NCBI GenBank assembly: GCA_017881285.1
Contig: JADGRD010000003.1
Coordinates: 1 to 28,758, forward strand
Source: Pseudomonadota bacterium
GTDB taxonomy: Bacteria > Myxococcota_A > Polyangia > Fen-1088
Length of the DNA stretch: 28,758 nt
Direction: 5' to 3'
Made by a program: the position numbers and the translations under genes. This document shows positions 1,243 to 27,395 of the stretch, piece after piece (positions within the stretch are counted from its first letter, which is position 1; each line of letters starts with the position of its first letter). The notes beneath the pieces are model-generated. The model was not told where the DNA came from, searched no databases, and was given only the letters and a program-made list of their open reading frames with translations.

Positions 1243-3440
1243 GCGAACACCTCGATGGCCGCCAGGCGCGGGCCGAGCTCCAGGAGGAGAAGGCGGCGGT
1301 GGGGAAGTGCGATGGGCGCGCCGGTGAAAGGAAGCATTCCCACGGCGACGGCACGGCCAGCGATGGCGGCCGCGGTCGCGCCGATGCTCGCGTGCTGGCC
1401 AAGCCGGTCGCGGTAGGCGACGATGGACGCGGACGGCAGGAGTTGGCCGAGGCGGGCGTAGGCAGGGTCCTTCGCCAAGTCATGCCCGGCCGGGATGCCG
1501 ACGACGACCGCATCATAGTCTGGCGTGACTCCGGCAAAGCGATCGACCAAGGCGACCGCGCCATCGTTGCCGCCTTCGCCGAGCCAGCGCAGGCGTACGC
1601 CGGGATCGCCGTCGTCGGGAATCAGCAGGAAAGCCGCGCCGCCATCGGAGACAAGCGGACCGCGTGCCCCCTCGGGATCGAAGAGCGGCGACAGCCGGGG
1701 TTCGAAGGCCTCGGCCGCCACGACGAGCGCGCTGCCCGCGCCAGACACGATGTGCAGGGAGCCGCACAGGAGCGCCTGGCTGAATGAGCGCTCGCCCGCG
1801 GAGGAGGTCAGGTTGGGCGCCTGGCTGCCGAGGAGCAGGGCGATTTGCCCGGTCGGCGCGTTGTGAACCGAGCCGATGAAATCCATTGGACTCGAGAACT
1901 GGTCCCCACTCTCGAAGAGCTTGCGCAAGAATTCCTGGGTCTCGGCCAAGGGGCCCCACGCCGTGCCCACGGCGATGGCCTCGGGCGGGGCGGCCCGGCC
2001 GCTCGCCGTGTGCACGGTCTGCGCGAGCGCAAGCATCAAGCGCGGCAGGCGCTTGAGCCGACGGACGAAGGCGGCGGGCGCCGCCCTGGCGAAAGCCGCG
2101 TCGGGCACCAGGCCAGCGGTGGAGTCGCGGGAGAGGAGGGCGTTCCAGGTCTCGTCAAGGCCGCCGCGCGCCGTGAGGCAAGCCGAGGCGGCGATGCGCA
2201 AGGCGGGCAGCCCCGAGGCAGGGGGAACATCCCCGGTCGTCGCGCGGAGGTCCCCTCTCCCCGCGTAGCGGGGAAAGGGATGGGGTGAGGGGCTGGACGG
2301 CGCCTTCTCGAAGATCACGCAGGCGTTGTTGCCGCCGAAACCGAAGGAGTTGGAAAGGACGGCGGAAATCGGCGCCTGGGTAGGCGCGCGCACCGGAGAG
2401 ATCTCGAGACTGGTGTCGAGTGTTTCAAGTCCGGTGTTGGCGGGCAGGAGACCGTCGCGCAGGGCGAGGATCGAGATCACCGCCTCGATGCCACCCGCGG
2501 CGGCCAGGGCGTGGCCGGTCAGTCCCTTGGTCGACGACAGCGCGGGTTGCACGTCGGCGAAGACCTGCTTCATGGCGCGCGCCTCCGCCTGGTCGTTGTC
2601 GGGCGTGCCGGTGCCGTGCAGATTCACGTAGCTGATGGCCCGTGGCTCGAGGCCCGCGTCGGCCAGGGCCCGGCGCATCGCCAGCACCGCGCCCTGGCCT
2701 TCTGGATGCGGGCTGGTAGCGTGGTAGGCGTCGCAGCTTAATCCCGTGCCGGAAAGCACGGCGAGAACCGGACGCTCGTCCGGCGCGGTTTCGAGCACCA
2801 GGAATCCCGCGCCCTCGCCGACGGTCATGCCGTCGCGATTCGCGTCGAGCGGCATGCACCCATGGGCAGCCACGAGCTGAAGCTGGCGGAAACCGTGGAA
2901 GGTCAGCCGGCTGAGGGAATCAGCGCCGCCGGAGAGGACCCGCCGGGCCAGACCCGCGCGCAAGAGGGCCGCCGCGACCGACAGCGCGACGGCCGCGCTC
3001 GAACAGGCCGTCGAGATGGTGATGACCGGCCCGCAGACGCCAAGCGTTTCCGCCAAGTGCAGCGCGACCGTGTCGAGACCATGGTAGCGGTAGGCGTCGG
3101 GCGAGGTGATGCCGGCTTCCAGCGCGCTCTCCGTCGCCGCGATGCCGCCCGTGCTGCTGCCCAGAACGATCGCATCGGGCAGCGGCCCGGTGCCCACTGC
3201 CTCGCGCGCGGCCAGCAGCGCGAGCCGGTGGGTGCGGGGCCGGCCCGCGACCTCGCCAGCCTCGAGGGCGGTAGCCTGCGCGACCGGCAACTCGCCGCTC
3301 GGGTGCTTGATGGGCCACACCGTCGGTGTCTGGAAATGCGCGACCGGATGCGCGAGAAGGTCGCGGAGCTCGCCGACATGGTTCGCTCCGGCGCATACCA
3401 CACCCATGCCGGTCACGCAGACGGGCGGCCGCGAGCTCAT
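1239..3440 (-). CDS. Beta-ketoacyl-ACP synthase fused to a C-terminal chain-length-factor-like (inactive KS) domain, 733 aa
   Basis: The N-terminal KS has STACSS (Cys), NLHGTGT (His), KGLTGHALAAAG (His) and NSFGFGGNN. The second half has KS-N-like motifs (VGTAWGPL, SPMDFIGSVHNAPTGQIA) with PNLTSSAGERSF, where Glu aligns to the catalytic Cys of PVITISTACSS. ATGA overlap with the upstream ACP. Confidence 0.9.
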   Translation of the reverse strand: MSSRPPVCVTGMGVVCAGANHVGELRDLLAHPVAHFQTPTVWPIKHPSGELPVAQATALEAGEVAGRPRTHRLALLAAREAVGTGPLPDAIVLGSSTGGIAATESALEAGITSPDAYRYHGLDTVALHLAETLGVCGPVITISTACSSAAVALSVAAALLRAGLARRVLSGGADSLSRLTFHGFRQLQLVAAHGCMPLDANRDGMTVGEGAGFLVLETAPDERPVLAVLSGTGLSCDAYHATSPHPEGQGAVLAMRRALADAGLEPRAISYVNLHGTGTPDNDQAEARAMKQVFADVQPALSSTKGLTGHALAAAGGIEAVISILALRDGLLPANTGLETLDTSLEISPVRAPTQAPISAVLSNSFGFGGNNACVIFEKAPSSPSPHPFPRYAGRGDLRATTGDVPPASGLPALRIAASACLTARGGLDETWNALLSRDSTAGLVPDAAFARAAPAAFVRRLKRLPRLMLALAQTVHTASGRAAPPEAIAVGTAWGPLAETQEFLRKLFESGDQFSSPMDFIGSVHNAPTGQIALLLGSQAPNLTSSAGERSFSQALLCGSLHIVSGAGSALVVAAEAFEPRLSPLFDPEGARGPLVSDGGAAFLLIPDDGDPGVRLRWLGEGGNDGAVALVDRFAGVTPDYDAVVVGIPAGHDLAKDPAYARLGQLLPSASIVAYRDRLGQHASIGATAAAIAGRAVAVGMLPFTGAPIALPHRRLLLLELGPRLAAIEVFA
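2251..2292. repeat. REP-like palindromic element (CCCCTCACCCC..CCCT.TCCCCGC-loop-GCGGGGAGAGGG type) inside the KS-CLF linker
   Basis: 2253-2264 ccctctccccgc pairs with 2268-2279 gcggggaaaggg (11/12) around a gta loop and is followed by tggggtgagggg. On the coding strand it reads SPSPHPFPRYAGRGD. Confidence 0.7.
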
Positions 3441-3712
3441 GCAGGCGAGGCCGGCCGGCGCTGCCGGAGGAAGGCGGCGAGCGCGTTGAGCGAGGCGAAG
3501 GCCTCGACGCCCGCGGCGCGATTGTCGATCTTCACGCCGTAGTCCCGTTCGATGAGGACGACCAGTTCGAGCGTGTCGATGGAATCGATGCCCAGCCCGG
3601 CGCCGATGAGCGGGGCGGCCGGGTCGACGGCTTCGGGCTTCAGGTCGAGGCCAAGGGTTTCGACGAGCTTGCGTGCGAGCTCGGCGACGAGGGGATCGGT
3701 TTGTCCAGTCAC
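3437..3712 (-). CDS. Acyl carrier protein (ACP 1), 91 aa
   Basis: PLIGAGLGIDSIDTLELVV contains the phosphopantetheine Ser (DS). GTG start preceded by AGGAG; the gene lies between two KS genes. Confidence 0.93.
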   Translation of the reverse strand: MTGQTDPLVAELARKLVETLGLDLKPEAVDPAAPLIGAGLGIDSIDTLELVVLIERDYGVKIDNRAAGVEAFASLNALAAFLRQRRPASPA

Positions 3713-3751
3713 GGTGGCTCCTGCCGGGGGGTGAACGGAAATCTCATGGGG

Positions 3752-5011
3752 TCACGCCAACCGGTGAAAGACCAGGCAGGTGTTGGTGCCGCCGAAGCCG
3801 AAGGCGCTCTTGAGCACGTATTCCTGATTGGCGAGCGGCCGCGTTGTGGTCACCACGTCGAGGTGGATGTCGGGATCGGGGGTCAAGTTGAGGGTGGGCA
3901 GCAACACGCCGTCGCGCATACCCTCGAGGGCGAGCATGGATTCGATGACGCTGGCCGCGCCCATGGCGTGGCCGAGCTGCGACTTGTTCGCGCTGACCGG
4001 CGGAACCCGGTCGCCGAAGACGTCGTGCAGTGCCTCGTCCTCGATCTTGTCGCCCACCTTGGTGGACGAGGCGTGCGCATTCACCGCCGCGATGCCGTCG
4101 GTCCGGACTTCCGCCGTTGCGATGGCTTCGGCGATGCAGGCTGCGATGGTCGGGCGGTGGGGCGAGACCGGGTGGTGCGCGTCCGAGGTCAAGGACCAGC
4201 CCGCGAGCTCGAAGTCGGCGGCTAGGCCGTGGGCGCGCGCGAAGTCGGCGCTCGCCATGATCACGCAGCCCGCGCCTTCGGAGATGACGAAGCCGCGGCG
4301 GTCGAGCGAGAACGGCCGGCTGGCCCTTTCCGGATGGGACCTGTCCTCGTCGGTCTTGGGCTTGAAAGCGCCGTTCATGGTCGAGAAACCCGCGACGATG
4401 GGCTCGACCAGCGGGAAATCGACGGCGCCCGCGATGACCACGTCGGCCCGGCCGGTGTCGATGAGCAGGGCGCCCATGGCCAGGGAGGTGCTGCCCGTGG
4501 CGCAGGCCGTGACCGTGGTGATGCACGGTCCGGTGGCGCCGGACAGCATCGAGATCTTTCCCGCGATCATGTTCACGCAGGAATTCGGGTTCATGTAGGG
4601 CAGGGGCAGGGTACCGGTGGCGACCAGGGCCCGGTCCGCGTCCACCACCGCGTCGAGCCCGCCGATGGCGGTGCTGAAGGTGACGGCCACGCGCGGGGCG
4701 AGCGCGGGTGTGATCTCGATGCCCGCCTTGGCCAGCGCGCGATGCACGACCAGCATGCTGTAGCGAAAGACCGGCGACTTCCAGTGCGCCATCTCACGGG
4801 GACGCAGGCAAGGTGGCAAGGGCTCGATGGCGGCCGGATCGAAATCGACCTGGCCGGCGATGCGCACCGGAAAATCAGGCCGGAGCGGAAAACGCGTCAG
4901 CGGCCCGATGCCGCTTTCGCCGGCGGTGGCGCGTTTCCACGCGGCGGCCCAATCCACGCCCAGCGAGGAAACTCCATCCCATCCCAGCAGCCGAGGTCGC
5001 GACTTGCCCAT
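3752..5011 (-). CDS. fabF: Beta-ketoacyl-ACP synthase II (FabF family), 419 aa from ATG 5011
   Basis: TVTACATGSTS (Cys), VNAHASST (His), KSQLGHAMGAA (His), SRPFSLDRRGFVISEG, SAFGFGGTN. The symbol is a family-level call only. Confidence 0.92.
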   Translation of the reverse strand: MGKSRPRLLGWDGVSSLGVDWAAAWKRATAGESGIGPLTRFPLRPDFPVRIAGQVDFDPAAIEPLPPCLRPREMAHWKSPVFRYSMLVVHRALAKAGIEITPALAPRVAVTFSTAIGGLDAVVDADRALVATGTLPLPYMNPNSCVNMIAGKISMLSGATGPCITTVTACATGSTSLAMGALLIDTGRADVVIAGAVDFPLVEPIVAGFSTMNGAFKPKTDEDRSHPERASRPFSLDRRGFVISEGAGCVIMASADFARAHGLAADFELAGWSLTSDAHHPVSPHRPTIAACIAEAIATAEVRTDGIAAVNAHASSTKVGDKIEDEALHDVFGDRVPPVSANKSQLGHAMGAASVIESMLALEGMRDGVLLPTLNLTPDPDIHLDVVTTTRPLANQEYVLKSAFGFGGTNTCLVFHRLA

Positions 5012-5024
5012 GGTCAATTCTCGG

Positions 5025-6020
5025 CTACCACGGAATGAATCGGTAGAGCTTGGCGAACATCTCGTAGACCTCGATCCAGTTCTGCAGATCGCGCGCGGTG
5101 CGGATGTGCGCTCGCTTGTTGACCATGACCCAGCTCATGTGGGCGGCGCCGTCCTTGCACGTGGCGCAGTCGCGCGTGGCGGAGGTGCAACAGCGATGCG
5201 TGGTCTTGAGATCCGCAGACCAGCGGCGGAAGCGGATGAGCCGGCGCGGCTGCGGGTTGCGCGTGTCGTGCGTCTCGGACACCGAGGGGCATTCCTGCCA
5301 GCCGAAGCGGCGGCCGAGCATGCTGCCCGTGGTGAGCACCTCGTGGTAGTAGCGCGAGGAGATGACGGTGTCGGGGTAACGGTCGAGTAGATCGTCCAAC
5401 TCGTCGCGCACGTCGGCGAGTTGCGCGGGCGACCAGGAGAAGCCATCGGCGCCCTCGTCGTTGGAGAGGAGCTGGAAGTGGACCTTGACGCCGATGTCAC
5501 GAATGCGGCGGACCATGGTCTCCACCCGGCCCAGTTGCTGCGAGGTGATGGTGTAGAGGTAGTAGGTGTTGGGGTCGCCGGCGTAGTTTTTCGACGAGAC
5601 CGCGAAGGCGTCCTTTCCACGCAGCGACTTCTCGGTGCCGGCGTCGCCCCACAGCGAGATGCCTACCATCATCTGCGGGAAGCGGTCGCGCGGCACCTTG
5701 ATGAGTCCGTTGGTGGCGCAGAAGGTGGGCAGGCGCTTGAAGAAGGCCTCGACGCGGTCGGGGTGCAGCGTCGGCTCGCCGCCGATGAGGATGGGCAGGT
5801 TCGCCCCGCGCGCTTTCTCGGCATCGATGAAGGTTTCCCACGTGGCAACGTCGTTGGCCTCGCCCGTCAGGTGCTCATTCGAGGAGAAGAAGAAGCAGCC
5901 CTTGCAGCGCAGGTTGCACGTGTTGGTCACGTCGTAGATCGAGCTGCGGATGTTCAGGTTGCAGATCTTCTGGTAGCGGTGGTGCCAGGCGTCGTCGAGC
6001 AGCGACCGGACGGTGATCAT
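5025..6020 (-). CDS. Radical SAM protein (non-B12), paralogue A, 331 aa; start corrected to ATG 6020
   Basis: TNTCNLRCKGCFFF (CxxxCxxC) and LIGGEPTL, with C-terminal ECPS...RCCTSATRDCATC extra cysteines. ATG 6020 forms an ATGA overlap with the stop of the upstream gene (6017). Confidence 0.9.
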   Translation of the reverse strand: MITVRSLLDDAWHHRYQKICNLNIRSSIYDVTNTCNLRCKGCFFFSSNEHLTGEANDVATWETFIDAEKARGANLPILIGGEPTLHPDRVEAFFKRLPTFCATNGLIKVPRDRFPQMMVGISLWGDAGTEKSLRGKDAFAVSSKNYAGDPNTYYLYTITSQQLGRVETMVRRIRDIGVKVHFQLLSNDEGADGFSWSPAQLADVRDELDDLLDRYPDTVISSRYYHEVLTTGSMLGRRFGWQECPSVSETHDTRNPQPRRLIRFRRWSADLKTTHRCCTSATRDCATCKDGAAHMSWVMVNKRAHIRTARDLQNWIEVYEMFAKLYRFIPW

Positions 6021-7123
6021 CGGGCGGCTCCGGTCTGCCGGGCCAGCGCGGGCGCGATAGGGACGGCGCACAGATTGGGTTCCTTGGCGTAGCCTTGCAC
6101 CCATACCGCGAGGTAGGTATCGACGTAGTCGAGCCAGGCTCGGAACTGGTCCGGGCTGCCGATGTGGCGGTTCATGCGCGCGGTGACGATGGCGCTACCC
6201 GCCGCATAGTGGCGACAGTCGGCGCAGTCGGTGTCGGGCACGCAGCACGCGGCCTCGCGAATCCACGTCAGGTCCGAGCGGTACTGGCGGAAGGAGCGCC
6301 CGAGGCCGAACTGCCCCTGGTTTTGCCGCGGGTACGGGCAGGAATAGAGATCGTGCAGCGAGAGGGTATCGGTGTGCGCGGCGGCGCTGTAGGGCGAGAA
6401 GAGCACCTGCTCGGGATAGTCGGCGAGCAGCGACAGCATGGCCTGGCGGGTCTCGGCGAGCGAGGTGGGCGTGTGGCTGAGCGAGCCCTGGTAGCCGACC
6501 GTGGCTGAGAACATGTTGAAGGTGACCTTGCAGCCGTGGCGGGCCAGATTCTCGACGACCCCGCGCGCCTCGGCGATGTTCTCGCGCGTGAAGGTGTAGA
6601 CGAAAACCGCGCGCGGATCGCCGGCGTAGATCTCGATCTGGCGCTCCAGCATGCGCTTGGCGCGGCGGACGCGCTCGGAGGTCGCGTCGTTGCCCCATAC
6701 CGAGATGTGGATGCGGTAGCCGACCTCCGACGAAATGTGAATCAAGCCATTCGAGGCGATGGCGCCCAGCGGGATCTCGGCGGAGCAGGCTTCGAGCAGA
6801 TCGGGCACGAGCGCGGGTTCGGCGCCGGCCAGCACGACAAAGGTGATGCCGCGCGCCTTCTCGGCCTGGAAGAGCTTGCGCCAGGCCTCGGGGTCGAGGT
6901 TGTCCTGCGCGTTCTGTTTGTCCCCCTCGTAGTAGTAGCAGCCGTCGCAGCGCACGTTGCACCGGCGGGTCATGTCGTAGGTCGACTCGCGCAGGAAGAA
7001 GTAGCGGCGAACCTTCGCGAAACGCGCGGCGATGTCCGGCAGCTTGACGATGTCCGCGAAGGTGCCGGACGTGGCCGCGGGCGCCGTATTCGCTGGGGCC
7101 GCGGCTAGAACGTCGAGGTTCAT
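6017..7123 (-). CDS. Radical SAM protein (non-B12), paralogue B, about 368 aa (alternative start 7138)
   Basis: TRRCNVRCDGCYYY (CxxxCxxC) and VLAGAEPAL, with C-terminal SCPY...ACCVPDTDCADC extra cysteines. Shares motifs with 5025-6020 (AEKARG, ISxWG, YAGDP, DL..., WxxV). Confidence 0.9.
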   Translation of the reverse strand: MNLDVLAAAPANTAPAATSGTFADIVKLPDIAARFAKVRRYFFLRESTYDMTRRCNVRCDGCYYYEGDKQNAQDNLDPEAWRKLFQAEKARGITFVVLAGAEPALVPDLLEACSAEIPLGAIASNGLIHISSEVGYRIHISVWGNDATSERVRRAKRMLERQIEIYAGDPRAVFVYTFTRENIAEARGVVENLARHGCKVTFNMFSATVGYQGSLSHTPTSLAETRQAMLSLLADYPEQVLFSPYSAAAHTDTLSLHDLYSCPYPRQNQGQFGLGRSFRQYRSDLTWIREAACCVPDTDCADCRHYAAGSAIVTARMNRHIGSPDQFRAWLDYVDTYLAVWVQGYAKEPNLCAVPIAPALARQTGAAR

Positions 7124-7151
7124 GACCGTGTCTGGCAACCCCCGTGCGCCG

Positions 7152-7421
7152 CTAGCTGACTGTGCCTTGCAGCTGACGGATCTGCTCCGCGATGGCGCGC
7201 ACCGTCGTGAGGGATGGGTAGTTGTCCTCGTCGAACTTCACCTTGTACTCGCCCTGCAGCACCAGCACCACCGTGGTGAGGTCCATGCTGTCGATGCCCA
7301 GCTCCTTGACCAGATCGGTTGTCACGTCGAAGGTATCGGGAGTGACATTTTCGAGCTTGAGTTCTTGGATTAGGATCTCGGCAATGCGCCGTTCCATCAA
7401 GCCATTCTGCGTCTGCGGCAT
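7152..7421 (-). CDS. Acyl carrier protein (ACP 2), 89 aa
   Basis: DLVKELGIDSMDLTTVV contains the DS motif; acidic helical ACP pattern; first gene of the leftward operon. Confidence 0.92.
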   Translation of the reverse strand: MPQTQNGLMERRIAEILIQELKLENVTPDTFDVTTDLVKELGIDSMDLTTVVLVLQGEYKVKFDEDNYPSLTTVRAIAEQIRQLQGTVS

Positions 7422-7452
7422 CTGGTTGGACCACCCTAAAAACGTGTCCCGC

Positions 7453-7482
7453 CGTTTAGCACGCCCGTTCGCGGAGAGTCAA
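7453..7482 (-). promoter_or_regulatory. Candidate sigma70-like promoter for the leftward operon
   Basis: Minus strand TTGACT (7482-7477), 18 nt spacer ending in TGc, then TAAACG (7458-7453), about 30 nt upstream of the ACP start. The -10 match is weak. Confidence 0.3.
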
Positions 7483-7554
7483 GGCACGGCCCGGCAGGCT
7501 TGGCGGGGAAAATCGTCGGTATTTCGAGGTCCTGCGCCTGATTTTCGGCGTGGC

Positions 7555-7583
7555 TTGCCAAGCAGGATTGCTTGGGCTATGCG
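7555..7583 (+). promoter_or_regulatory. Candidate sigma70-like promoter with a perfect palindrome (possible operator) in its spacer
   Basis: TTGCCA (7555-7560), N17, TATGCG (7578-7583). The palindrome CCAAGCA-ggat-TGCTTGG lies at 7558-7575. Confidence 0.3.
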
Positions 7584-7621
7584 GGGTATCCCACCGAGCC
7601 GGTGAGTCCCGGGAAGGTGCC

Positions 7622-9217
7622 ATGGCCCCGCAGAAAAAGCGCATTTATCTCATCAACCCCAAGACCCCCGAGAACTTCTGGGCGATGCAGGGGACTCTCG
7701 ACATCGTGGGCCGGCACAAGACCCTGATGCCCAATGCCGCCCTGCTGACCCTGGCGGCCTTGACCCCGCCCGGGCTCGATATCGAGTACGTGTTCTGCGA
7801 CGAGAACCTCGCGCCGGCGCGCCTCGACCTGGCCTGCGACCTGGTGGCCATCACCGGCTATACGCTGCAAGCCGAGCGCATGCGGGCCTTGAGCGACGCC
7901 TTCCGCGCGCGCCATGTGCCGGTGGCGGTGGGCGGCGTCTTCGCGACCTTGGAGCCCCAGCGGGCGCGGTCCCTGGCCGACCACCTGTTCCTCGGCGAGG
8001 CGGAGCTGACCTGGCCGCGCTTCCTCGGCGACTGGCTGGCGGGGCGGGCCGGGCCGCTCTACCAGCAAGAGGAATTCATCGATCTCAAGACCAGCCCAGG
8101 GGCTGATCTGTCGTACGTGCACGCGTCCGACTACCTCTACTTCTCGGTGCAGACCTGTCGCGGCTGCCCCAATAACTGCGATTTCTGCGACGTCGTACGC
8201 CTGGTGGGCCGCAAGTTCCGCACCAAGTCCATTGCGCAGATCGTGCGCGAAGTGAAGGCCGCGCACGCCTGCGGCGCCGAGACGGTCTTCTTCTCGGACG
8301 ACAATTTTCTGGTCAATCGCGCCTTCACGGTCGATCTCTTGCGCGAGCTGGTCGCCTGGAATCGAACCTTGGGGAGGCCGCTGTCGTTTTCCACGCAGGC
8401 CACGGTGCAGATCGGCGCCGACGACGAGATCCTGAAACTGCTCGCCGACGCGCGCTTCAGCGTCATCTTCCTGGGGCTCGAAACCCTGCGCAAGGAATGT
8501 CTCGACGAGGTCAACAAGGGGCAGATGGCGTGCTTCGATCCGCGCACGGTCATTCCGCGCATCGGGAGCTACGGCATCATGCCCTTCCTCGGCATGATTG
8601 TCGGGTTTGACCATGACACCCCGGCGGTTTTCGGCGACATCGAGAGCTTCCTCGACGAAACTGGCAGCCCCATCGCCTCGATCAGCGTGCTCAATGCGCC
8701 CCGGCACACGGAGCTCTACCGGCGTATGCAGGCCGAGGGCCGCTTGCAGGAGGAATTTCGCGGCTTCTGGCACCTCACCACCAACATCGTGCCCAAGGGC
8801 ATGACGCTGCAAGAGTTGTATCAGGGGCACAAGGCGCTCTTCCAGCGGCTCTATGAACCCGAGCATTTCGAGCGCCGCATGATCAAGTGGCTGGGCAACG
8901 TGCGCTACTTGACCGACCTCTACTCGACGAAGAAGAAGACGCTCCACCGGCTCTTCCTCATCTTGCGGGTCGGGCGGCATTTCCTTTTCCGGGTGCCGCC
9001 GGTCGTGCGCCGCATGTTCTGGAATGTGGTCAAGTCCGCCTGGCGCACCAATCCGCGCCTCATCTCGCGCGCCGTCTCCGTGCTCGTGCAGTACTGGCAC
9101 TACTACGACTTCGCCCGCCGGGAAGCGTGGCAGAGGGCGGGGTTGGATGAGGGGCCACTTTATGCCTCGCCCTGCGCAGCGGGCGAGGGCGCGGCGAAGC
9201 CGCGGGGGCAGGGGTAG
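7622..9217 (+). CDS. B12-binding-domain radical SAM protein (BchE/HpnP-like superfamily, probable DUF4070-like C-terminus), 531 aa; start corrected to ATG 7622
   Basis: N-terminal IYLINPK...NAALLTLAALTP...DLVAITG...VAVGGVFAT is a cobalamin-binding-type Rossmann domain. QTCRGCPNNCDFC (CxxxCxxC), FFSDDNF, GLET, GMIVGFDHD. GGGAAGG lies upstream of the ATG. Confidence 0.92.
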   Translation: MAPQKKRIYLINPKTPENFWAMQGTLDIVGRHKTLMPNAALLTLAALTPPGLDIEYVFCDENLAPARLDLACDLVAITGYTLQAERMRALSDAFRARHVPVAVGGVFATLEPQRARSLADHLFLGEAELTWPRFLGDWLAGRAGPLYQQEEFIDLKTSPGADLSYVHASDYLYFSVQTCRGCPNNCDFCDVVRLVGRKFRTKSIAQIVREVKAAHACGAETVFFSDDNFLVNRAFTVDLLRELVAWNRTLGRPLSFSTQATVQIGADDEILKLLADARFSVIFLGLETLRKECLDEVNKGQMACFDPRTVIPRIGSYGIMPFLGMIVGFDHDTPAVFGDIESFLDETGSPIASISVLNAPRHTELYRRMQAEGRLQEEFRGFWHLTTNIVPKGMTLQELYQGHKALFQRLYEPEHFERRMIKWLGNVRYLTDLYSTKKKTLHRLFLILRVGRHFLFRVPPVVRRMFWNVVKSAWRTNPRLISRAVSVLVQYWHYYDFARREAWQRAGLDEGPLYASPCAAGEGAAKPRGQG

Positions 9218-10947: not shown

Positions 10948-11379
10948 ATGGCGGACGCACGCCGAACAGCCACGGTCGCTTTCAGCGTTCCTTTCGCCGA
11001 CGTGGACGCCATGCAAATCGTGTGGCACGCCAACTACCTCAAGTACTTCGACCTGGCTCGCGATCGGCTGTACTGCGACGCCGGGTTGGATCTCTACCAG
11101 GTGGCCGTGGACAGCGGGATGATCTTCCCCATCACGCGCACGCAGACCAAGCACGTCCGCCCCTTGCGTTTTCGCGACGAGGCCGTGTGCACGGCCACGC
11201 TGCTCGAGTTCGAGTGTCGCCTGGTCGTGGAATTCGAGATCCGCCTGGCCAAGGATGGGCAGCTTTGCGCCAAGGGCCGCACCGAGCAGGCCGCGGTACG
11301 GTTTGCCGATGGTGGCTTGGAACTGCGAATTCCGGAACCCATCCGGCGGGCGCTTCGCACTGTCGGCCATGACGGCTGA
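10948..11379 (+). CDS. Acyl-CoA/ACP thioesterase (4HBT/YbgC hotdog family), 143 aa; start corrected to ATG 10948
   Basis: VPFADVDAMQIVWHANYLKYFDLAR matches the DxDxxGxVxxxNYxxYF motif, with PLRFRD downstream. Confidence 0.9.
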   Translation: MADARRTATVAFSVPFADVDAMQIVWHANYLKYFDLARDRLYCDAGLDLYQVAVDSGMIFPITRTQTKHVRPLRFRDEAVCTATLLEFECRLVVEFEIRLAKDGQLCAKGRTEQAAVRFADGGLELRIPEPIRRALRTVGHDG

Positions 11380-13114
11380 CGTCTCCGTGGCTGGGGATCT
11401 GCGCCGGGCGCTCGCCGATGGCTGCGCCGCCGTCGGCGCCTGGGCCGAGGTTCTCGACCGCATCAACGTCTTCCCGGTTCCCGACGGAGACACCGGCCGC
11501 AACCTGGTGTTGAGCCTGGCGCCTCTGCGCGATGTCGGCGCCAGCGACCATGCCATTGCGGAGCGGTTGCTGCTGTCGGCTCGGGGGAATTCGGGCAATA
11601 TCGCTTGCGCCTTCGTGCGCGCGTTGCTGGATGGGGTCGCGGGCGCAAGCCTGGCCGCCCGCTGCGTGGTCGGAGCCGCCAGCGCGCGCAAGGCGGTCGC
11701 GGTTCCGCAGCCGGGGACCATGCTGACAGTGCTGGATGCGCTGGCGGAGGCGGCGAGGGCAGGGTTGGCGGCGAAGGACGTACCCTCGCTGCTCGGGCGC
11801 CTGTCGACCGTGGTGCGGGAAACCACCGGGCAGCTGGAGTCGTTGCGCAAGGCCGCGGTGGTGGACAGCGGCGCGCTCGGCATGCTGGTGTTTCTCGACG
11901 GGGCTCTGCGTGGCTACCACGGGCTACCTGAGCCTGGCGAGAGCCTGGCCGCTACTTTTCGTTCGCTGGTGCGCTTCGATCGTTCGCGAGCCGCCGGGCA
12001 TGAGGAGCACGGCTTCTGCGTTGACGCTGTCTTGCGCGTACCCGCGGGTGGCCGGCCGCCCGACGAGCAGTTGGCCCGCATCGGCAGCGAGGTTGTGGCC
12101 CTGCGCGAGGGTCCGCTGTGGAAGATCCACCTGCACGCCGGCGACGCGCAGGCGGCGCGCGCGGCCCTGGGTGAAGTCGGCGAAGTGCTCGCCTGGTCGT
12201 GGGACGATTTGCACGAGCAGATGTCGACAAGCCCGCCCGTCGCGGCCGAGGGAGAAGTGCATATCGTGACCGACGGCGCGGCCTCGCTCGCGCGCTCAGC
12301 GGCCGAAGCCTTGGGCGTGAGCCTGCTCGACAGTCTCGTCAATTTCGGCGGGCGATCACTGCCCGAGACGCGTCTCGACCCCGACGACGTTTATCGGGCC
12401 ATGCGCCGGGGCGTGCGCGTGTCGACGGCGCAGGCGTCAACCCACGAGCGCCACATGTGCTACGGGCGGCTTGTCGCGCAGTGGCAGCACGTGCTCTACC
12501 TGTGCGTGGGCTCGGTCTACACCGGCAACCACGCCGTGGCCACCGCCTGGCGAGCGTCGCATAAGTCGGGCGAGCGTCTGATCGTGCTCGACAGCGGCGC
12601 CGCCTCCGGCCGCCTGGCCGTGGTGGTGCGAGCAACGGCAATCGCCGCTCGGAGTGGCGTCGACATTGGGGACCTGACGGCCTTCGCCACCGCTGCCCTG
12701 TCGCGCGCCGAGGAGTACATCTTCCCCGATCGCCTGGAGTACCTGGCGCGCGGCGGGCGTTTGTCGAAGGCGGGCGCGTGGTTCGGCGACGCCCTGGGCC
12801 TAGCCCCCGTGGTTTCGCCCTTTCCCGACGGTGCCCGCAAGGTCGCGCTGCTGCGCAAGCCGGAAGATCGCCTGACCTTCGCTTGTCAGCAGGTGAAACG
12901 CGCCTTCGCCACCGGCTCGCGCCGCGGCTACCTCCTCGCCGAATACACCGACAATCGCGCCTGGGTGGAGGGCGTCCTGCTGCCGCGATTGCGCGCGGCC
13001 GCGCCCGAGGCCGAGCTCGCGGCGGGCCCGCTGTCCCTCACCACCGGCGCCCACACCGGCCCGGGAGCCTGGGCGGTGGCGATGCTGCCCGATTCGCCCG
13101 CGCAAGGTGTGTGA
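11369..13114 (+). CDS. DAK2 (FakA-like) / DegV (FakB-like) fusion, putative fatty acid kinase, 581 aa; start corrected to ATG 11369
   Basis: DAK2 motifs INVFPVPDGDTGRNL, ARGNSG, TMLTV and VVDSGA; middle domain GFCVD...KIHLH; DegV motifs IVTDGAASL, VSTAQAS, DSGAASG, LARGGRL and GAHTGPG. Confidence 0.88.
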   Translation: MTADVSVAGDLRRALADGCAAVGAWAEVLDRINVFPVPDGDTGRNLVLSLAPLRDVGASDHAIAERLLLSARGNSGNIACAFVRALLDGVAGASLAARCVVGAASARKAVAVPQPGTMLTVLDALAEAARAGLAAKDVPSLLGRLSTVVRETTGQLESLRKAAVVDSGALGMLVFLDGALRGYHGLPEPGESLAATFRSLVRFDRSRAAGHEEHGFCVDAVLRVPAGGRPPDEQLARIGSEVVALREGPLWKIHLHAGDAQAARAALGEVGEVLAWSWDDLHEQMSTSPPVAAEGEVHIVTDGAASLARSAAEALGVSLLDSLVNFGGRSLPETRLDPDDVYRAMRRGVRVSTAQASTHERHMCYGRLVAQWQHVLYLCVGSVYTGNHAVATAWRASHKSGERLIVLDSGAASGRLAVVVRATAIAARSGVDIGDLTAFATAALSRAEEYIFPDRLEYLARGGRLSKAGAWFGDALGLAPVVSPFPDGARKVALLRKPEDRLTFACQQVKRAFATGSRRGYLLAEYTDNRAWVEGVLLPRLRAAAPEAELAAGPLSLTTGAHTGPGAWAVAMLPDSPAQGV

Positions 13115-13148
13115 CCCTTCGCCTCGCCCACCACGAAGACACCTAAGG

Positions 13149-13184
13149 ACGATGGTCGTTTGGCGCCAACTCGCAGACCATCGT
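13149..13184. terminator. Possible hairpin between convergent genes
   Basis: acgatggtc (13149-13157) and gaccatcgt (13176-13184) form a perfect 9-bp stem enclosing the ttggcgccaa palindrome. No U-tract. Confidence 0.2.
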
Positions 13185-13276
13185 GCGCAACGGCACGTCG
13201 TGCGACGAGGTCAGGTCCGGGGCAGCAGCGGTGCAAATCCTCTTTGGCGGTCCGGGCGGGCCGGTGCCGCCGCCGA

Positions 13277-13804
13277 TCATACCCTGGCAGGCCTTGGTCG
13301 TGGTCGGCGCTTGCCGCTGCGCGGTCTTGGTCGCCGGGGCGGGACGGCAGGCGCGACGCGCAGATCGAACCGGATCTCGTGCGGATAGAGGATGCGCAGT
13401 GTCCGGATGCCGCGGGTACGGATGGCCGCGCCGCGAACCGCCGCGACGATCTGGCCAACGACGCCAGCGTTGGCCCACTTGCCTTGCGAGGTGAAGTCCT
13501 CGTGCACGGCAAGGTGCAAGACAAGTAAACAGGCACGCTTGTCCCTGGCGAACATGGCCACGCCGACCAGAGACGCGGGCGGCTCGGTTTCGTCGAAGGC
13601 GTACAAGGTTTGCAGCATGCCGAAGGCATCCACGCGAAAGCGCAGACAACCATCTTCCTCGACGATGGATGGCACCCCGTAGCGGTGAACGGAATCGAGC
13701 AGAGGCGCGGTGACGGAACTCTGCTCCGGATTGAAGAACACGATTCGCTCGAGCTCGTCGCGAAACGAAGCGGCAAGCACGGAAGAGAGTCGAATCTTAC
13801 GCAT
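13277..13804 (-). CDS. Hypothetical protein with degenerate GNAT-like motif, 175 aa; start corrected to ATG 13804
   Basis: GAAGGTG precedes the ATG. The globular-looking sequence includes VLHLAVHEDFTSQGKWANAGVVGQIVAAVRGAAIRTRGIRTLRILY, which resembles GNAT motif A/B; it ends in a Pro/Arg-rich tail. Confidence 0.65.
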   Translation of the reverse strand: MRKIRLSSVLAASFRDELERIVFFNPEQSSVTAPLLDSVHRYGVPSIVEEDGCLRFRVDAFGMLQTLYAFDETEPPASLVGVAMFARDKRACLLVLHLAVHEDFTSQGKWANAGVVGQIVAAVRGAAIRTRGIRTLRILYPHEIRFDLRVAPAVPPRRPRPRSGKRRPRPRPARV

Positions 13805-14129
13805 TGCATCACCTTCTTTGCCAGGACGTCGCGGGGAACTGCCTTCCGGTTTGCCGACCGAGGAACCGTCGGTCACTCGGAACGAAGTGTGCCCCATGAC
13901 CTCGGGACGAGGCTAGCTTACTCCAAGTTGGCGTGCTTGCCCCGCTGGAGCGCAATCCGGCTTTCGCCTGGGTGATGGCGCGAGCGAACAGAGCGTGCTC
14001 TCGCTGCGCATGGGTCCGGCAGCAGACTGGACCTGCAAAGCGGCAGTTCGAGCCTTTCTGGCCAGCCTTCCCGCACTCGCGCAAGGGGCGTGACAGGGGC
14101 ACCTTCTCCCTGGCATTCTACCTCTCCAC

Positions 14130-15365
14130 ATGTGTAAAGGACACCGCGTCGTCGTCACGGGAGTCGGCCTGCGCTCGCCGATAGGGCACACGCTCACGGC
14201 GCTGCGCGATGGCCTTCTCGCGGGCAGGAGCGGCGTGCGCGCCATGCCGGGGTGGGAGTCTCTCGACGGGCTGCGCACGCGCGTGGGCGCGCCCTGCGAC
14301 GGCATCGACACCAACGACATCCCGCGCAAATTCGCCCGCACCATGGGTCGGGTGGCGGTGCTGGCCGCACTCTCGGTGCGTGACGCGGTCGCGGACGCGG
14401 GGCTGCCGGCCGAGGTGGTGGCGTCCCCAAACTGCGGCGTGGCCTACGGCTCGACCGTGGGAAGCACGGCCTCGCAGGAGGACTTCCTGCGTCCCATCCT
14501 CAACGACACATCCATCCGCGGGCTTCTGGCCTCCACCTACTTGCAGTTCATGAGCCATACCTGCGCCGCCAACATCGCGCTCATGTTCGGGTGCAAGGGG
14601 CCGGTCATCGCCTCGTGCACGGCCTGCACCTCGGGCTCGCAGGGCGTCGGTATCGCCTACGAGCAGGTGCGCTTTGGCCGCGTGCCCATCTGCCTGGGCG
14701 GCGGCGCCGAGGAGCTGCACATCCTGCACGCCGGCATCTTCGACATCATGCGCGCCACCTCGGCGGGCTATGCCGACACGCCCGAGCGCACGCCGCGGCC
14801 GTTCGACCGCAAGCGCGACGGTCTGGTGGTGGGCGAGGGCGCCGCCTGCCTGGTGATGGAAGAGTACGAACGCGCGCGGAAGCGCGGCGCGAACATCTAT
14901 GCCGAGATCATCGGCTACGGCCAGGGCTGCAACGGCACCCACCCGACCAATTCCGATCCCGGCGGGATCTGCATCGCCATCAACGCGGCCCTGCGCGACG
15001 CCAAGCTGGCGCCGTCGGACATCCAGCACGTCAACGCGCACGCCACCGGCACCGACGTGGGCGACGCGGCCGAGGCCGTGGCCATCCACCGCATCTTCGG
15101 CGCCAAGGTGCCGGTCAGCGCGCTCAAGGGCTACTTGAGCCACACCCTGGGCGCCAGCGGCGCCATCGAGTCGGCCGCCACGATCGTGATGATGCGCGAC
15201 GGCTTCATGGCCGTGTCGAAAAACCTCGACGAGCCCGATCCCGCGCTGCCGCCCATCGACCATGTGCTGGGTAGCGCGCGGCAGGCGCCCATTCGCATCG
15301 CCATGAACAACAACTTCGCGTTCGGCGGCATCAACACCTCGCTCGTCTTTCGTGCGCTTTCGTGA
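14130..15365 (+). CDS. fabF: Beta-ketoacyl-ACP synthase (FabF/FabB family, ApeR-like), 411 aa
   Basis: RVVVTGVGLRSPIG, YLQFMSHTCAAN, CTACTSGSQGVG (Cys), VNAHATGT (His), KGYLSHTLGASG (His), RPFDRKRDGLVVGEGA, NNFAFGGINTSL. Family-level symbol. Confidence 0.93.
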   Translation: MCKGHRVVVTGVGLRSPIGHTLTALRDGLLAGRSGVRAMPGWESLDGLRTRVGAPCDGIDTNDIPRKFARTMGRVAVLAALSVRDAVADAGLPAEVVASPNCGVAYGSTVGSTASQEDFLRPILNDTSIRGLLASTYLQFMSHTCAANIALMFGCKGPVIASCTACTSGSQGVGIAYEQVRFGRVPICLGGGAEELHILHAGIFDIMRATSAGYADTPERTPRPFDRKRDGLVVGEGAACLVMEEYERARKRGANIYAEIIGYGQGCNGTHPTNSDPGGICIAINAALRDAKLAPSDIQHVNAHATGTDVGDAAEAVAIHRIFGAKVPVSALKGYLSHTLGASGAIESAATIVMMRDGFMAVSKNLDEPDPALPPIDHVLGSARQAPIRIAMNNNFAFGGINTSLVFRALS

Positions 15366-20112: not shown

Positions 20113-21390
20113 TCACCGGCGAGAGGGCACGGTCGCCGGCCGGCCGAAACGCTGGCTGGCCAGTTCCCCGCGCCGCGGGACGAAGGTGCCGTCCGCCATT
20201 TCCTTGCTCACCACTTTCTGCAGCAGCTTATACATCTTGTAGGTCTGCGGCTCGTCCCGATAGAAAACCTCCCAGGCGTAGTGGTACAGCTCCAATAGCC
20301 GTTCGGGCGTCATGTGGCGTGGCTGATACACCACGTGGTCAGCGGTGTAGAGGTCCCAGTCCGAGGTCAGGAGGCGGCCGTCTTTGACCAGGTCGTCGCG
20401 CGAGCGGGTGTGCGGGAAGGGGGTCAGTACCGTGAACTCGGCCAGGTCGAGCTTGATCTCGAGCAGGAAGTCCACCAGCCGCTTGATGTCGTCCTCGGTC
20501 TGCTCGTCGAGTCCGAGCAGGATGGTGCCCTCGACGGCGATGCCGTAGGCGTGATAGCGCTCGATGCGGCGGCGGATGAAGTCCGAGGTGTCGAAGACGG
20601 CCTGGTAGACGTACCAGGCGCCGGCCTGCGCCGCGAGGTCGAGCACCTGGTCGTCGTCCTCGATGGGGTGCGAGCACCACTTCTTCTTGAGCGGGATCAT
20701 CTCGCGGAAGAGATCGAGCTCCCACGGCTTGCTCTGCGCGAGCGAGTTGTCGACGATGAAGAGGCGGTTGTTGTCGATGCCGGCCAGCTCTTCCACCACC
20801 CGATCGATGGGCCGCGGCCGGAAGTGGCGGCCACCCAGGTAGTTGACCGCGCAGGGATAGCAGTTGAAGCGGCAGCCGCGCGAGGCGTGGAACAGATCCA
20901 CCATGCGCACGCCCTTGTAGTTGTAGAGCTCGGGCTGGAGGATCGAGCGACGCGCGGGACCGATCAGCTCCGTCGGCGCCGGGTCGTTCAAGTAGTCATA
21001 CGTTGGTTTGAGCTGGCCCGCCCGCCAATCGGCGATGACCTGTGCCATGCGGCCCTCGGCCTCGCCCAGGAAGACCGCGTCGGCGTGCGACTGCGTTTCC
21101 TCCGCGTGCAACATGGTGGCGATGCCGCCGCAGATGACCTTGACGCCGCGGCGCCGGTACTCGTCGGCGATGGCCCAGCCGCGCTTGACCTGACTGGTCA
21201 GCATCATCGAGATGCCGACGAAGTCCAAGGGATCGTCGAAGTCGATCGTCTGGACGTTCTCGTCCACGAAATTCACTTCGACCTCGGGCGGCAGCGCCGC
21301 CGCGAACACCACCGGTCCGTGCGGCGGCAGGTGAAACTCGGTCTGGCCCGTCAGCTTGGCCCACTTGGGATAGATGAGGCGAAACTTCAC
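20113..21390 (-). CDS. B12-binding-domain radical SAM protein, 425 aa
   Basis: FRLIYPKW...PPHGPVVFAAALP...DFVGISMM...VICGGIAT is a cobalamin-binding-type domain. ASRGCRFNCYPC (CxxxCxxC), FIVDN, LLGLD, TPFPHT. GTG start with AGGAAG upstream. Confidence 0.92.
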   Translation of the reverse strand: MKFRLIYPKWAKLTGQTEFHLPPHGPVVFAAALPPEVEVNFVDENVQTIDFDDPLDFVGISMMLTSQVKRGWAIADEYRRRGVKVICGGIATMLHAEETQSHADAVFLGEAEGRMAQVIADWRAGQLKPTYDYLNDPAPTELIGPARRSILQPELYNYKGVRMVDLFHASRGCRFNCYPCAVNYLGGRHFRPRPIDRVVEELAGIDNNRLFIVDNSLAQSKPWELDLFREMIPLKKKWCSHPIEDDDQVLDLAAQAGAWYVYQAVFDTSDFIRRRIERYHAYGIAVEGTILLGLDEQTEDDIKRLVDFLLEIKLDLAEFTVLTPFPHTRSRDDLVKDGRLLTSDWDLYTADHVVYQPRHMTPERLLELYHYAWEVFYRDEPQTYKMYKLLQKVVSKEMADGTFVPRRGELASQRFGRPATVPSRR

Positions 21391-24267: not shown

Positions 24268-24725
24268 GGTTGTTCTCCGGGCAGGGGAACGCGGTCGGGG
24301 CGGAAGGCCTGGATCGCTCCGGTCAGCCATAGCATGCCGGAGTCATCCTTGACCTCGCCTTCGAAGGCCTGATAGTTCGTGGCGCCGTGGGAAGTGCGCA
24401 CCGAGCAGAGCAGCCGCGTTCCCACGGGCACGCTGGGCCGGGCAGGAGTGGCGGTGTGTATGCCAACCAGGAGGCCGCCGATGCGGGCATCCTTCTCATG
24501 CCGCTCTTTCCAGCCTTGCAGGACCGCGGCGGATTGTGCGATGAGCTCGACGAGCACCAGGGCGCGCACGTGGCCGCCCTCCGCCGTGGGCCACGCCTCG
24601 CGGACGACCGCGCCGATCTCTATGGAAGTCTCGTCGACCCGGAGGATGTCCTCGACCAGGCGCATGGGCAAGCGATGGGGAATCAGCCTCTCGATGTCGC
24701 TTGGGGAAGCGGTGGGTTCGCTCAT
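24264..24725 (-). CDS. Hotdog-fold 3-hydroxyacyl-ACP dehydratase subunit (ApeP/FabZ-like), 153 aa; true start ATG 24725
   Basis: LIPHRLPMRLVE and ELIAQSAA, GLLVGI. ATGA overlaps at both ends. The upstream part of track ORF 24264-25853 is a shadow frame. Confidence 0.85.
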   Translation of the reverse strand: MSEPTASPSDIERLIPHRLPMRLVEDILRVDETSIEIGAVVREAWPTAEGGHVRALVLVELIAQSAAVLQGWKERHEKDARIGGLLVGIHTATPARPSVPVGTRLLCSVRTSHGATNYQAFEGEVKDDSGMLWLTGAIQAFRPDRVPLPGEQP

Positions 24726-25561
24726 TCTCGCTCCTTGGCGGCAGTGATCCAGGCAGGCGGCGGGGCGCCAGCGGCAAGCGGCGACATGGCCAGGCCGATG
24801 ACCGCGTCGCAGACCGCGCCTTCTTCGTCGATGAACCAGAGGTTGCAGAGAAGACTCCGTGGTTCGACGCGTGTCGGGACGACGATGCAGCGGCGCTCGC
24901 CAGCCGGGGTCGGCTTCGTCAACACCCGGGCCAGGAAGCCGGTCGGGTACGCCACGATCCCGGCGTACCGTTGTCCCCACACGCAGGCCAGGTGCATGGC
25001 CGCGTCGAACAGGTAGGGGCAGCTCGCCAGCGGGGGGGGGTGTCGCGGTGGCTCGGGGGAACGCACGCGGGCGACGCCGCCGCTCGGCCCCAGGCGAACG
25101 GTCCCGCGCAGATTGCAGTAGCGCGGCCCGAAGGGAATCAGCTCGCGATAGACGCGCTCGGCGGGCAGCTCGAAGGCGCAGGCGAGATCCGCCGGCGGAC
25201 GCGGTGGCGGTGCGATCGGGGCCCCCAGCGTAACTCCGGCATGCACACGCGAGCGGCGCATGTCCCCCACCAGAGCGATCCGCGAGGTCAAGGTCGCACG
25301 CAGGGCGCCGTCGCTTGCTTCCACGGCAATCTCGAAGGTGCAGCGATCGATTTCGTCGGCCGGCAGAAAGCGAGGGAAGCTCACGTCGGTCATGGCCAGG
25401 GGCAGGGGCGGTCGACCGGCCCAACCCTCTTGCCCGGCCACGGTTCGGACCAAGAGCTCGAGCAGCTCGACGGCGGGCACGGTGGCTTTGCCGCCGATGA
25501 CGTGGTCCGCCAGGTCCGGTAACTCGGGCAAGGCGACGGACCAGGCGGCCAGCACGGGCAT
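24722..25561 (-). CDS. Stand-alone type I PKS-like dehydratase (double hotdog), 279 aa; start ATG 25561
   Basis: LADHVIGGKATVPA matches HxxxGxxxxP; YLFDAAMHL matches the DxxxH/Q catalytic motif; FGPRY. TGATG overlap with the upstream thioesterase. Confidence 0.8.
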   Translation of the reverse strand: MPVLAAWSVALPELPDLADHVIGGKATVPAVELLELLVRTVAGQEGWAGRPPLPLAMTDVSFPRFLPADEIDRCTFEIAVEASDGALRATLTSRIALVGDMRRSRVHAGVTLGAPIAPPPRPPADLACAFELPAERVYRELIPFGPRYCNLRGTVRLGPSGGVARVRSPEPPRHPPPLASCPYLFDAAMHLACVWGQRYAGIVAYPTGFLARVLTKPTPAGERRCIVVPTRVEPRSLLCNLWFIDEEGAVCDAVIGLAMSPLAAGAPPPAWITAAKERE

Positions 25562-26040
25562 CACTGGGGAAAGCGCTGGAAGATCCCGACGGTGATCGGA
25601 TCGACCGCGACCGGCCGGCCCTTGCGGTTGGTCGCGCAGTGGCGCGTGAACCCGCGGCACAGCACGCTCCCGTCTTCCGCGTTCGTGATGATGTAGTCGA
25701 AGTCGACCCGCACGGCCGCCAGCTCGCGGAAGCGCGTATGGACGAAGATGGGCGCGTCGTAGTCGATGGGCCGGAAGAAATCGAGGCCGAGCTGGAAGAT
25801 GGGGTAGACGTGGCCATCCGCCTCGACCTGCCGGAGCGGGAAGCCCGCGTCACGCAGCAGGGTCGCGCGCCCGAGCTCGAAGAAGCGGAAGTAGTTGCCG
25901 TGGTAGACGACGCCCGTGCGATCCGTGTCGGCGAAGAGGATGCGATGGGAGACGCGGTGCCAGACCTGCCCGGAAACCTGGTCGCGCACGTAGCGCTGGT
26001 CGGATTCGTAAGGGACGGGCTTGAATTCAGTCGCGCGCAT
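25561..26040 (-). CDS. Acyl-CoA/ACP thioesterase (YbgC/FadM hotdog family), 159 aa
   Basis: RILFADTDRTGVVYHGNYFRFFELGR; FFRPIDYD. Confidence 0.92.
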   Translation of the reverse strand: MRATEFKPVPYESDQRYVRDQVSGQVWHRVSHRILFADTDRTGVVYHGNYFRFFELGRATLLRDAGFPLRQVEADGHVYPIFQLGLDFFRPIDYDAPIFVHTRFRELAAVRVDFDYIITNAEDGSVLCRGFTRHCATNRKGRPVAVDPITVGIFQRFPQ

Positions 26041-27300: not shown

Positions 27301-27395
27301 GCGAGGGGTAGGTGGTGTTCTATGGCATGCCGCTGGGCGATTCCGCAAGGCTTCGTTGCGCGAGGCGCAGCGGGCGCCAGCGGCGTAACCTTCGA

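Follow-up and report, generated by a model that had tools for sequence, protein, structure and literature searches.

The question raised by this locus is what two adjacent radical S-adenosylmethionine (SAM) genes, here called rSAM-A and rSAM-B, are doing between the genes of an acyl carrier protein (ACP) and a ketosynthase (KS). The locus belongs to a 28,758 nucleotide stretch of DNA, the window (contig JADGRD010000003.1 of GenBank assembly GCA_017881285.1, positions 1 to 28,758), from a bacterium listed as Pseudomonadota and placed by GTDB in Myxococcota_A, Polyangia, Fen-1088. Our best explanation as a whole, to which a probability of about 0.5 is given, is that rSAM-A and rSAM-B are separately active enzymes which act one after the other and belong to a carrier-protein-dependent clade. 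The pair probably carries out a radical reaction that needs no oxygen, on a fatty chain bound to a carrier.

When the open reading frames (ORFs) of the window and their translations were analysed, all genes of the module were found on the minus strand. The operon is headed by ACP1 (7421-7152, 89 aa; PF00550, E 2e-9), which keeps the phosphopantetheine serine in the sequence GIDSMD. It is followed after 28 nt by rSAM-A (7123-6017, 368 aa), for which an alignment of homologues backs the ATG start (a TTG is found further upstream, at 7138). The next gene, rSAM-B (6020-5025, 331 aa), begins in an ATGA overlap with the stop of rSAM-A, and 7–13 nt after the stop of rSAM-B begins KS1, a FabF-like ketosynthase (5017-3752; PF00109 and PF02801, Cys-His-His) with either TTG at 5017 or ATG at 5011 as its start. 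The last gene of the module, ACP2 (3712-3437; PF00550, NF006617 with 67.9 bits), encodes the carrier of a downstream set containing a fused ketosynthase-chain length factor (KS-CLF) and a desaturase-like protein. The ATGA coupling and the direct ACP and KS flanks described in the initial annotation of this DNA could thus be read in the window. A σ70 promoter scan of the region 3300–7700 found none, and no terminator-like site was found on its minus strand.

Both products belong to the radical SAM superfamily (PF04055), rSAM-A with 40.4 bits against a cut-off of 29.5 and rSAM-B with 29.2 bits (E 1e-6), slightly below the same cut-off. Aligned with each other they show 31% identity over 305 residues (E 1e-41), which makes them the tandem paralogs that the initial annotation took them for, and every motif quoted there (CxxxCxxC, GGEP/GAEP and Cys...CC-x5/6-C-x2-C) is present in the translations. 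In rSAM-A the motifs read CNVRCDGC, AGAEP, SCPY and CCVPDTDCADC, and in rSAM-B CNLRCKGC, GGEP, ECPS and CCTSATRDCATC; one upstream Cys is thereby followed by CC-x5-C-x2-C in the former and by CC-x6-C-x2-C in the latter. Alignments of the two families show CX3CX2C and all four Cys of CC-x5/6-C-x2-C to be invariant, while conservation of the single upstream Cys is confined to the A and B families. The wider family holds about 2000 homologues of each protein (2065 for rSAM-A) in 497 clusters at 50% identity, 80 of them with E < 1e-30. About 60 full-length clusters at this identity share CN[LIM]xCxGC together with G[AG]EP, and most of these also CC-x5/6-C-x2-C.

No characterised family of another function claims the pair in Pfam, NCBIfam or PDB profiles. 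Pfam finds the generic radical SAM core only, and the NCBIfam and PDB entries are likewise without a specific family; the best specific NCBIfam model reached ~30 bits, in the core, against cut-offs of 300–650. A profile search of the PDB reaches only SkfB, again over the core, with E 2e-11 for rSAM-A and 3e-4 for rSAM-B. The B12-binding domain PF02310 is absent from both proteins; the window's other two radical SAM genes do encode it. HpnH (PF04055 with PF11946) had been suggested by an Atlas feature search, and this relationship was rejected because no match to PF11946 (DUF3463) appeared at E 10 and HpnH was only a low-ranked neighbour. Full-text literature searches revealed no characterised ACP-dependent radical SAM enzyme of the A/B type. 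The A/B family is undescribed, even if the type of cluster has been noticed since 2009.

The description of the C-terminal Cys set as SPASM/twitch-like held in part. Membership of the SPASM family by profile was rejected, PF13186 giving no match even at E 10 in rSAM-A, rSAM-B and three relatives, and the SPASM pattern CX9-15GX4C ... CX2CX5CX3C ... C is absent, with one Cys followed by CC-x5/6-C-x2-C instead. What stood was the structural neighbourhood. An AlphaFold2 model of rSAM-A (predicted local distance difference test score, pLDDT, 82.8 and predicted template modelling score 0.86, with pLDDT 54–81 in the Cys region) matched many radical SAM structures with Z 10–17 over a partial TIM-barrel fold. 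The closest PDB folds were BlsE (Z 16.8), SkfB (16.6) and anSMEcpe (16.2), then viperin, SuiB, ChlB and CteB; SPASM/twitch structures align over residues ~40–340 (to about 341), and a search of Swiss-Prot models matched only AhbC-, MoaA- and PqqE-type proteins. Since its best neighbours are BlsE, SkfB and anSMEcpe, the predicted fold of rSAM-A is placed in the SPASM/twitch neighbourhood, at 10–18% identity and without a close relative. Like rSAM-A, the SPASM/twitch enzymes (BlsE, 7vob; SkfB, 6efn; anSMEcpe, 4k36; SuiB, 5v1q; CteB, 5wgg; Z 13–17) combine the CX3CX2C core with a Cys-bearing C-terminal extension. They differ in their peptide, sugar or nucleotide substrates and in a seven-Cys pattern, whereas the A/B clade is ACP-linked and carries CC-x5/6-C-x2-C with one upstream Cys.

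The same structural search bears on the idea that the pair inserts sulfur in the manner of LipA and BioB, the extra cluster being the sulfur donor. In favour of this idea, the octanoyl substrate of LipA is tethered to a protein and the enzyme contains an auxiliary cluster; also, many hosts of the pair are sulfur-cycling anaerobes. Both LipA and BioB are, however, mid-rank structural matches only (Z 10.6–11.6), their Cys motifs are absent and the window organism comes from permafrost, peat or soil, and we consider sulfur insertion highly improbable.

The neighbourhood of the pair was compared in a scan with one genome per species, in which relatives of rSAM-B were found in at least 479 species. 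The 80 best rSAM-B loci (70–87% identical) belong to Desulfobacterales, Syntrophales, Desulfobulbales, Spirochaetota, Myxococcales and the isolate Thiorhodococcus mannitoliphagus (Chromatiaceae); the counts that follow take in only those loci long enough to show the gene in question. Across these loci of other species the order dehydratase (DH)-ACP1-A-B-KS-KS-thioesterase-DH is kept. The gene rSAM-A lies immediately before rSAM-B in 74 of 75 loci, ACP1 before rSAM-A in 70 of 73 and an ApeI-like dehydratase before ACP1 in 62 of 71. On the other side KS1 follows rSAM-B in 69 of 75, and further downstream are found KS3 (54/65), a 4HBT thioesterase (50/61), a PS-DH dehydratase (45/56), PlsY (25/53) and a phosphopantetheinyl transferase (PPTase) domain fused to PS-DH (13/53). 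The embedding of the pair among carrier proteins and ketosynthases, proposed from the window, is thereby extended to other species. Full operons, including PlsY and the PPTase fusion, were annotated in one locus of Spirochaetota (L023) and one of Desulfosarcina (L090), the latter with a PF22817 ApeP-like protein, and cultured carriers of the pair are Desulfogranum japonicum DSM 18378 (L020) and T. mannitoliphagus DSM 18266 (L076). With respect to the window, rSAM-B (73%), rSAM-A (65%) and ACP1 (63%) show the highest mean identities, against ~31–32% for the thioesterase and PS-DH. The ATGA overlap was rejected as a family trait, being present in only four of the 80 loci; it is adjacency and order that are kept.

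In the Spirochaetota locus KS1 and KS3 are separated by a Na+/H+ antiporter gene (12417-14429), and an integrase gene (6943-7920) is found just upstream of the module. DNA seems to have been inserted locally here, into an operon that is conserved in other respects. The module is arranged differently in the window and in L001 and L091, its relatives from Myxococcales, where KS1 is followed by ACP2, the KS-CLF and the desaturase-like protein. In most other species KS3 and PS-DH directly follow KS1, whereas in the window KS3 (26041-27348, minus strand), the PS-DH double-hotdog dehydratase (24722-25660, minus strand), both assigned by Pfam and synteny, and the thioesterase are found elsewhere in the 28-kb cluster. 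For the second B12-type radical SAM gene of the window (20113-21390, minus strand; PF02310/PF04055), orthologs with 69–75% identity were present in five out of five genomes in which it lies apart from the pair; therefore the parts behave as one system even when split. Two orthologs of the short B12 radical SAM gene contain in-frame stops, one with two TGA and a split match (G004:C6:245498-246749) and one with a single TAA (G005:C4:1043235-1044500), and these may be pseudogenes, assembly errors or cases of recoding.

To address the relation to carrier proteins, single-copy relatives of the pair and their surroundings were analysed. A solitary A-like protein, P0246 (42% identity to rSAM-A, 26% to rSAM-B; L084:8001-9255), is encoded by a gene overlapping the following gene of an unrelated ACP, in a glycan cluster that has no ketosynthase and encodes sulfotransferases, WcbI, an epimerase and a glycosyltransferase of family GT61. 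Among the B-like relatives P0342 (37% to rSAM-B) is followed by an ACP, and P0347 (35%) is situated between a PaaA-like protein and a fatty acyl-AMP ligase (FAAL) together with a SnoaL-ACP fusion. A fourth relative, P0345 (L095:6001-8175), is a 724-aa fusion of a TubC_N docking domain, a thioesterase and a radical SAM part with CC-x7-C-x2-C; it is located directly behind a reducing polyketide synthase (PKS) module with dehydratase, methyltransferase, enoyl reductase, ketoreductase and ACP domains (DH-MT-ER-KR-ACP) and before an LCM-type methyltransferase. Two neighbours of the single-copy relatives, of 391 and 375 aa, were considered as hidden radical SAM paralogs and rejected, as they are not paralogs.

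In a maximum-likelihood tree of the A/B-type clusters and 28 other clusters, rSAM-A groups with P0246 and P0265 (support 100/99) and rSAM-B with P0342, P0347/P0373 and P0379/P0345 (100/99), and the two groups join at 99/96 against the 28 others. As the tree splits well-supported A-type and B-type groups with relatives in each, the A/B duplication is old. Every A+B-clade architecture examined, the pair's own operon and four others, includes a carrier protein, and homologues are not generally found away from ACP and KS genes. Because relatives within the clade sit by carrier proteins unrelated to ACP1, we consider it likely, and with good confidence, that the pair acts on a carrier-tethered chain, as the initial annotation had supposed. 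No carrier protein was found near four examined members of the other group (L087, L088, L096 and L097), which include Beijerinckia mobilis and an alphaproteobacterial metagenome-assembled genome (MAG). These solitary relatives are partly from aerobic Alphaproteobacteria such as B. mobilis. Some have ORFs of 58–63 aa next to them, and one a PqqD-like gene together with another radical SAM gene, which hints at peptide substrates for this sister group.

The initial annotation had proposed either a heteromeric or a sequentially acting pair. Strict co-occurrence with adjacency in 74 of 75 loci, the ATGA coupling in the window and the very high and similar conservation of both proteins would suit an obligate heterodimer performing one reaction, in which one subunit is catalytic and the other binds the substrate or the ACP. 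Against this, both proteins keep all catalytic motifs, the overlap is present in only four of 80 loci, and single A-like or B-like relatives are found with a carrier protein and lack the other paralog. From the last point two autonomous catalysts in sequence are favoured, and sequential rather than heterodimeric action is, by a little, what we expect; the heteromeric proposal drew no support from a complex prediction, which does not count against it either. An obligate heterodimer appears unlikely.

The tree also bears on whether the pair modifies a protein or peptide in the manner of maturases of ribosomally synthesised and post-translationally modified peptides, the target possibly being ACP1 itself. 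The nearest neighbours in structure and sequence, SkfB, SuiB, CteB and PqqE, act on peptides, the solitary sister group has small ORFs and in one case a PqqD-like gene as neighbours, and ACP1 is unusually conserved. On the other hand ACP1 retains the serine for attachment of phosphopantetheine, 13 loci carry a PPTase fusion within the operon, and the partners seen in this clade include unrelated carrier proteins and the terminal ACP of a PKS, so that only a small chance is left to this alternative.

For two sequentially acting enzymes working on a carrier-bound chain the following mechanism can be proposed. Each protein would bind SAM at the [4Fe-4S] cluster of CX3CX2C and generate a 5'-deoxyadenosyl radical. 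This radical would take a hydrogen from the intermediate, acyl or enoyl, that ACP1 carries on its phosphopantetheine arm. The cysteines of CC-x5/6-C-x2-C, judging from their invariance, may hold an auxiliary Fe-S cluster to which the second electron would go. SPASM/twitch enzymes typically perform two-electron oxidations with the extra cluster as electron acceptor. With the auxiliary cluster accepting the second electron, each step would be a net two-electron oxidation, which either closes a ring through a C-C bond within the chain or desaturates the chain without oxygen; this assignment of the reaction type is tentative. Chain extension would be carried out by KS1 and KS3 with the hotdog dehydratases and FabG, and the 4HBT thioesterase would release the acid. 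In the window a 4HBT thioesterase gene is followed by a Dak2-DegV fusion resembling fatty acid kinase (10948-13114, plus strand; PF13279, and PF02734 + PF02645 + PF21645), and in 25 of 53 loci of other species a dedicated PlsY ends the module (as at L090:15500-16081 and L023:17505-18488). This suggests a route from free acid via acyl-phosphate to glycerol-3-phosphate, by the Fak-type kinase in the window or by PlsY in those 25 loci of other species. The chances that a glycerolipid is the destination of the product are about even, and an Ape-type export set (LolA-like protein, lipoprotein and MMPL) would move the lipid outward.

When the cluster is compared with published systems, gene content points in several directions. 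Syntenic clusters resembling type II fatty acid synthesis (FASII), with radical SAM and phytoene-desaturase-like genes, were reported in Kuenenia stuttgartiensis, Desulfotalea psychrophila, Geobacter and Pelobacter (Rattray 2009, PMC2649909), and the adjacent radical SAM genes kuste3342/3343 went undetected on expression in E. coli (Javidpour 2016, PMC4790861). The Kuenenia (kuste3335-3352) and Desulfotalea clusters share with the window FabF paralogs, ACPs, FabG, hotdog dehydratases, a phytoene-desaturase-like protein, a glycosyltransferase, acyl-CoA-ligase-like and membrane proteins and radical SAM genes (those adjacent genes in Kuenenia), a likeness drawn from the published gene lists (PMC2649909, PMC4790861); the ammonia-lyase and the Fak fusion are extra in the window. 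In addition ACP2, the KS-CLF fusion, the phytoene-desaturase-like protein and the divergent B12 radical SAM protein resemble the gene content of the anammox 'Cluster I', although the B12 protein scores only 52 bits on TIGR04072 (cut-off 360).

These clusters bring up a third alternative, in which the pair consists of oxygen-independent, regiospecific acyl-ACP desaturases that give anaerobes polyunsaturated chains, the 'novel anaerobic PUFA pathway' (polyunsaturated fatty acid; Rattray 2009). Desulfotalea psychrophila, one of the species with a syntenic FASII/radical SAM cluster (PMC2649909), makes acyclic polyunsaturated products; the PS-DH and FabA-like dehydratases resemble those of PUFA synthases, and two paralogs would suit two positions. 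No radical SAM fatty-acyl desaturase is known, however, dehydratases without an enoyl reductase already yield unsaturation, and P0345, one of the relatives, comes directly behind a PKS module that is fully reducing. A role purely in desaturation is accordingly judged doubtful.

With aryl polyene (Ape) and flexirubin clusters the window shares KS/CLF, ApeI- and ApeP-like dehydratases, a ketoreductase, a thioesterase, an AMP-ligase, GT2, an LpxL-like acyltransferase, MMPL, a LolA-like protein, a lipoprotein and a tyrosine/histidine ammonia-lyase. The annotations of this type are PF22818 (ApeI-like), PF03548 (LolA), PF03176 (MMPL), PF03279, PF00535, PF13279 and PF00501, and the window further holds an ApeI-DH/AMP-ligase fusion and an MMPL-methyltransferase. 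Compared with Ape clusters the ACP1-A-B-KS-KS-thioesterase-DH(-PlsY) module is an addition here, and we know of no described Ape cluster with radical SAM genes; a full-text search found no paper linking aryl polyene, radical SAM and ammonia-lyase. For the modification of a ketoacyl chain that stays bound to its carrier while it is elongated, the HemN-like radical SAM cyclopropanases Jaw5/C10P, which work with an iterative PKS, are the only established case (PMC13459092). They differ in belonging to another radical SAM class, HemN being a weak match to the rSAM-A model (Z 9.7) and HemN-family matches being absent.

The remaining genes around the module are the fused KS-CLF-like protein of 733 aa (3440-1239, minus strand; PF00109/PF02801 and PF13723) and the phytoene-desaturase-like flavoprotein (1242-1, minus strand; PF01593, PF13450), which is truncated by the window edge. 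On the plus strand a divergent B12-binding radical SAM gene with DUF4070 (7550-9217; PF02310, PF04055, PF13282) heads an operon of the lyase, the thioesterase and the Fak fusion. The GC content of the window is 63–71%. Its nearest relatives are uncultured Myxococcales MAGs, with rSAM-B identities of 87% (L001) and 85% (L075), and its DNA was matched in permafrost, peat and soil metagenomes. In four soil or wetland metatranscriptome libraries 16 short contigs showed at least 95% identity to KS1, rSAM-B and rSAM-A (window 3878–7166), which is weak evidence of expression, as such matches are no proof of transcription.

Several observations weigh against two sequential enzymes making a lipid on a carrier protein. 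The literature searches found no biochemical datum for any member of the A/B family. The rSAM-B model reached a mean pLDDT of 56.5 only, because its alignment is too uniform, and was left out of the fold search, and the predicted complex of rSAM-A and rSAM-B scored 0.00 in a run without controls, a value that speaks neither for nor against contact. Two adjacent Cys seldom both ligate one cluster, and the CC-x5/6-C-x2-C site could therefore bind Zn, or a cluster held by three Cys with the fourth as a free catalytic residue. An extra desaturation is not obviously needed, since dehydratases are present and the annotation shows no enoyl reductase in the cluster of the window. Finally, PlsY lies outside the window, the only PlsY of the genome being on another contig, and is present in about half of the loci.

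A bolder form of the proposal would make the pair the founding carrier-protein-dependent radical SAM cyclases, which form C-C bonds or carbocycles in a growing fatty or polyene chain without oxygen and so build an undescribed class of glycerophospholipid, one that would occur widely among anaerobes of the Desulfobacterota, Spirochaetota and Myxococcota and have a mechanistic link to the ladderane problem; we hold this to be speculative and unlikely as a whole. Genome mining has listed 'ladderane' biosynthetic gene clusters without assigned function in Desulfobacterota and Myxococcota (PMC9902471), and knowledge of the pair's reaction would offer an experimental handle on such clusters. A review of 2026 (PMC13459092) lists no radical SAM enzymes on ketoacyl lipids other than Jaw5 and the hypothetical ladderane enzymes. 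With this chemistry on fatty-acid-type lipids almost unknown, a pair found in at least 479 species, best conserved within its cluster and tied to carrier proteins by five independent architectures is worth study. Once solved, its reaction would define a new enzyme family and would probably expose an unrecognised membrane lipid of anaerobes, with possible use as a biomarker.

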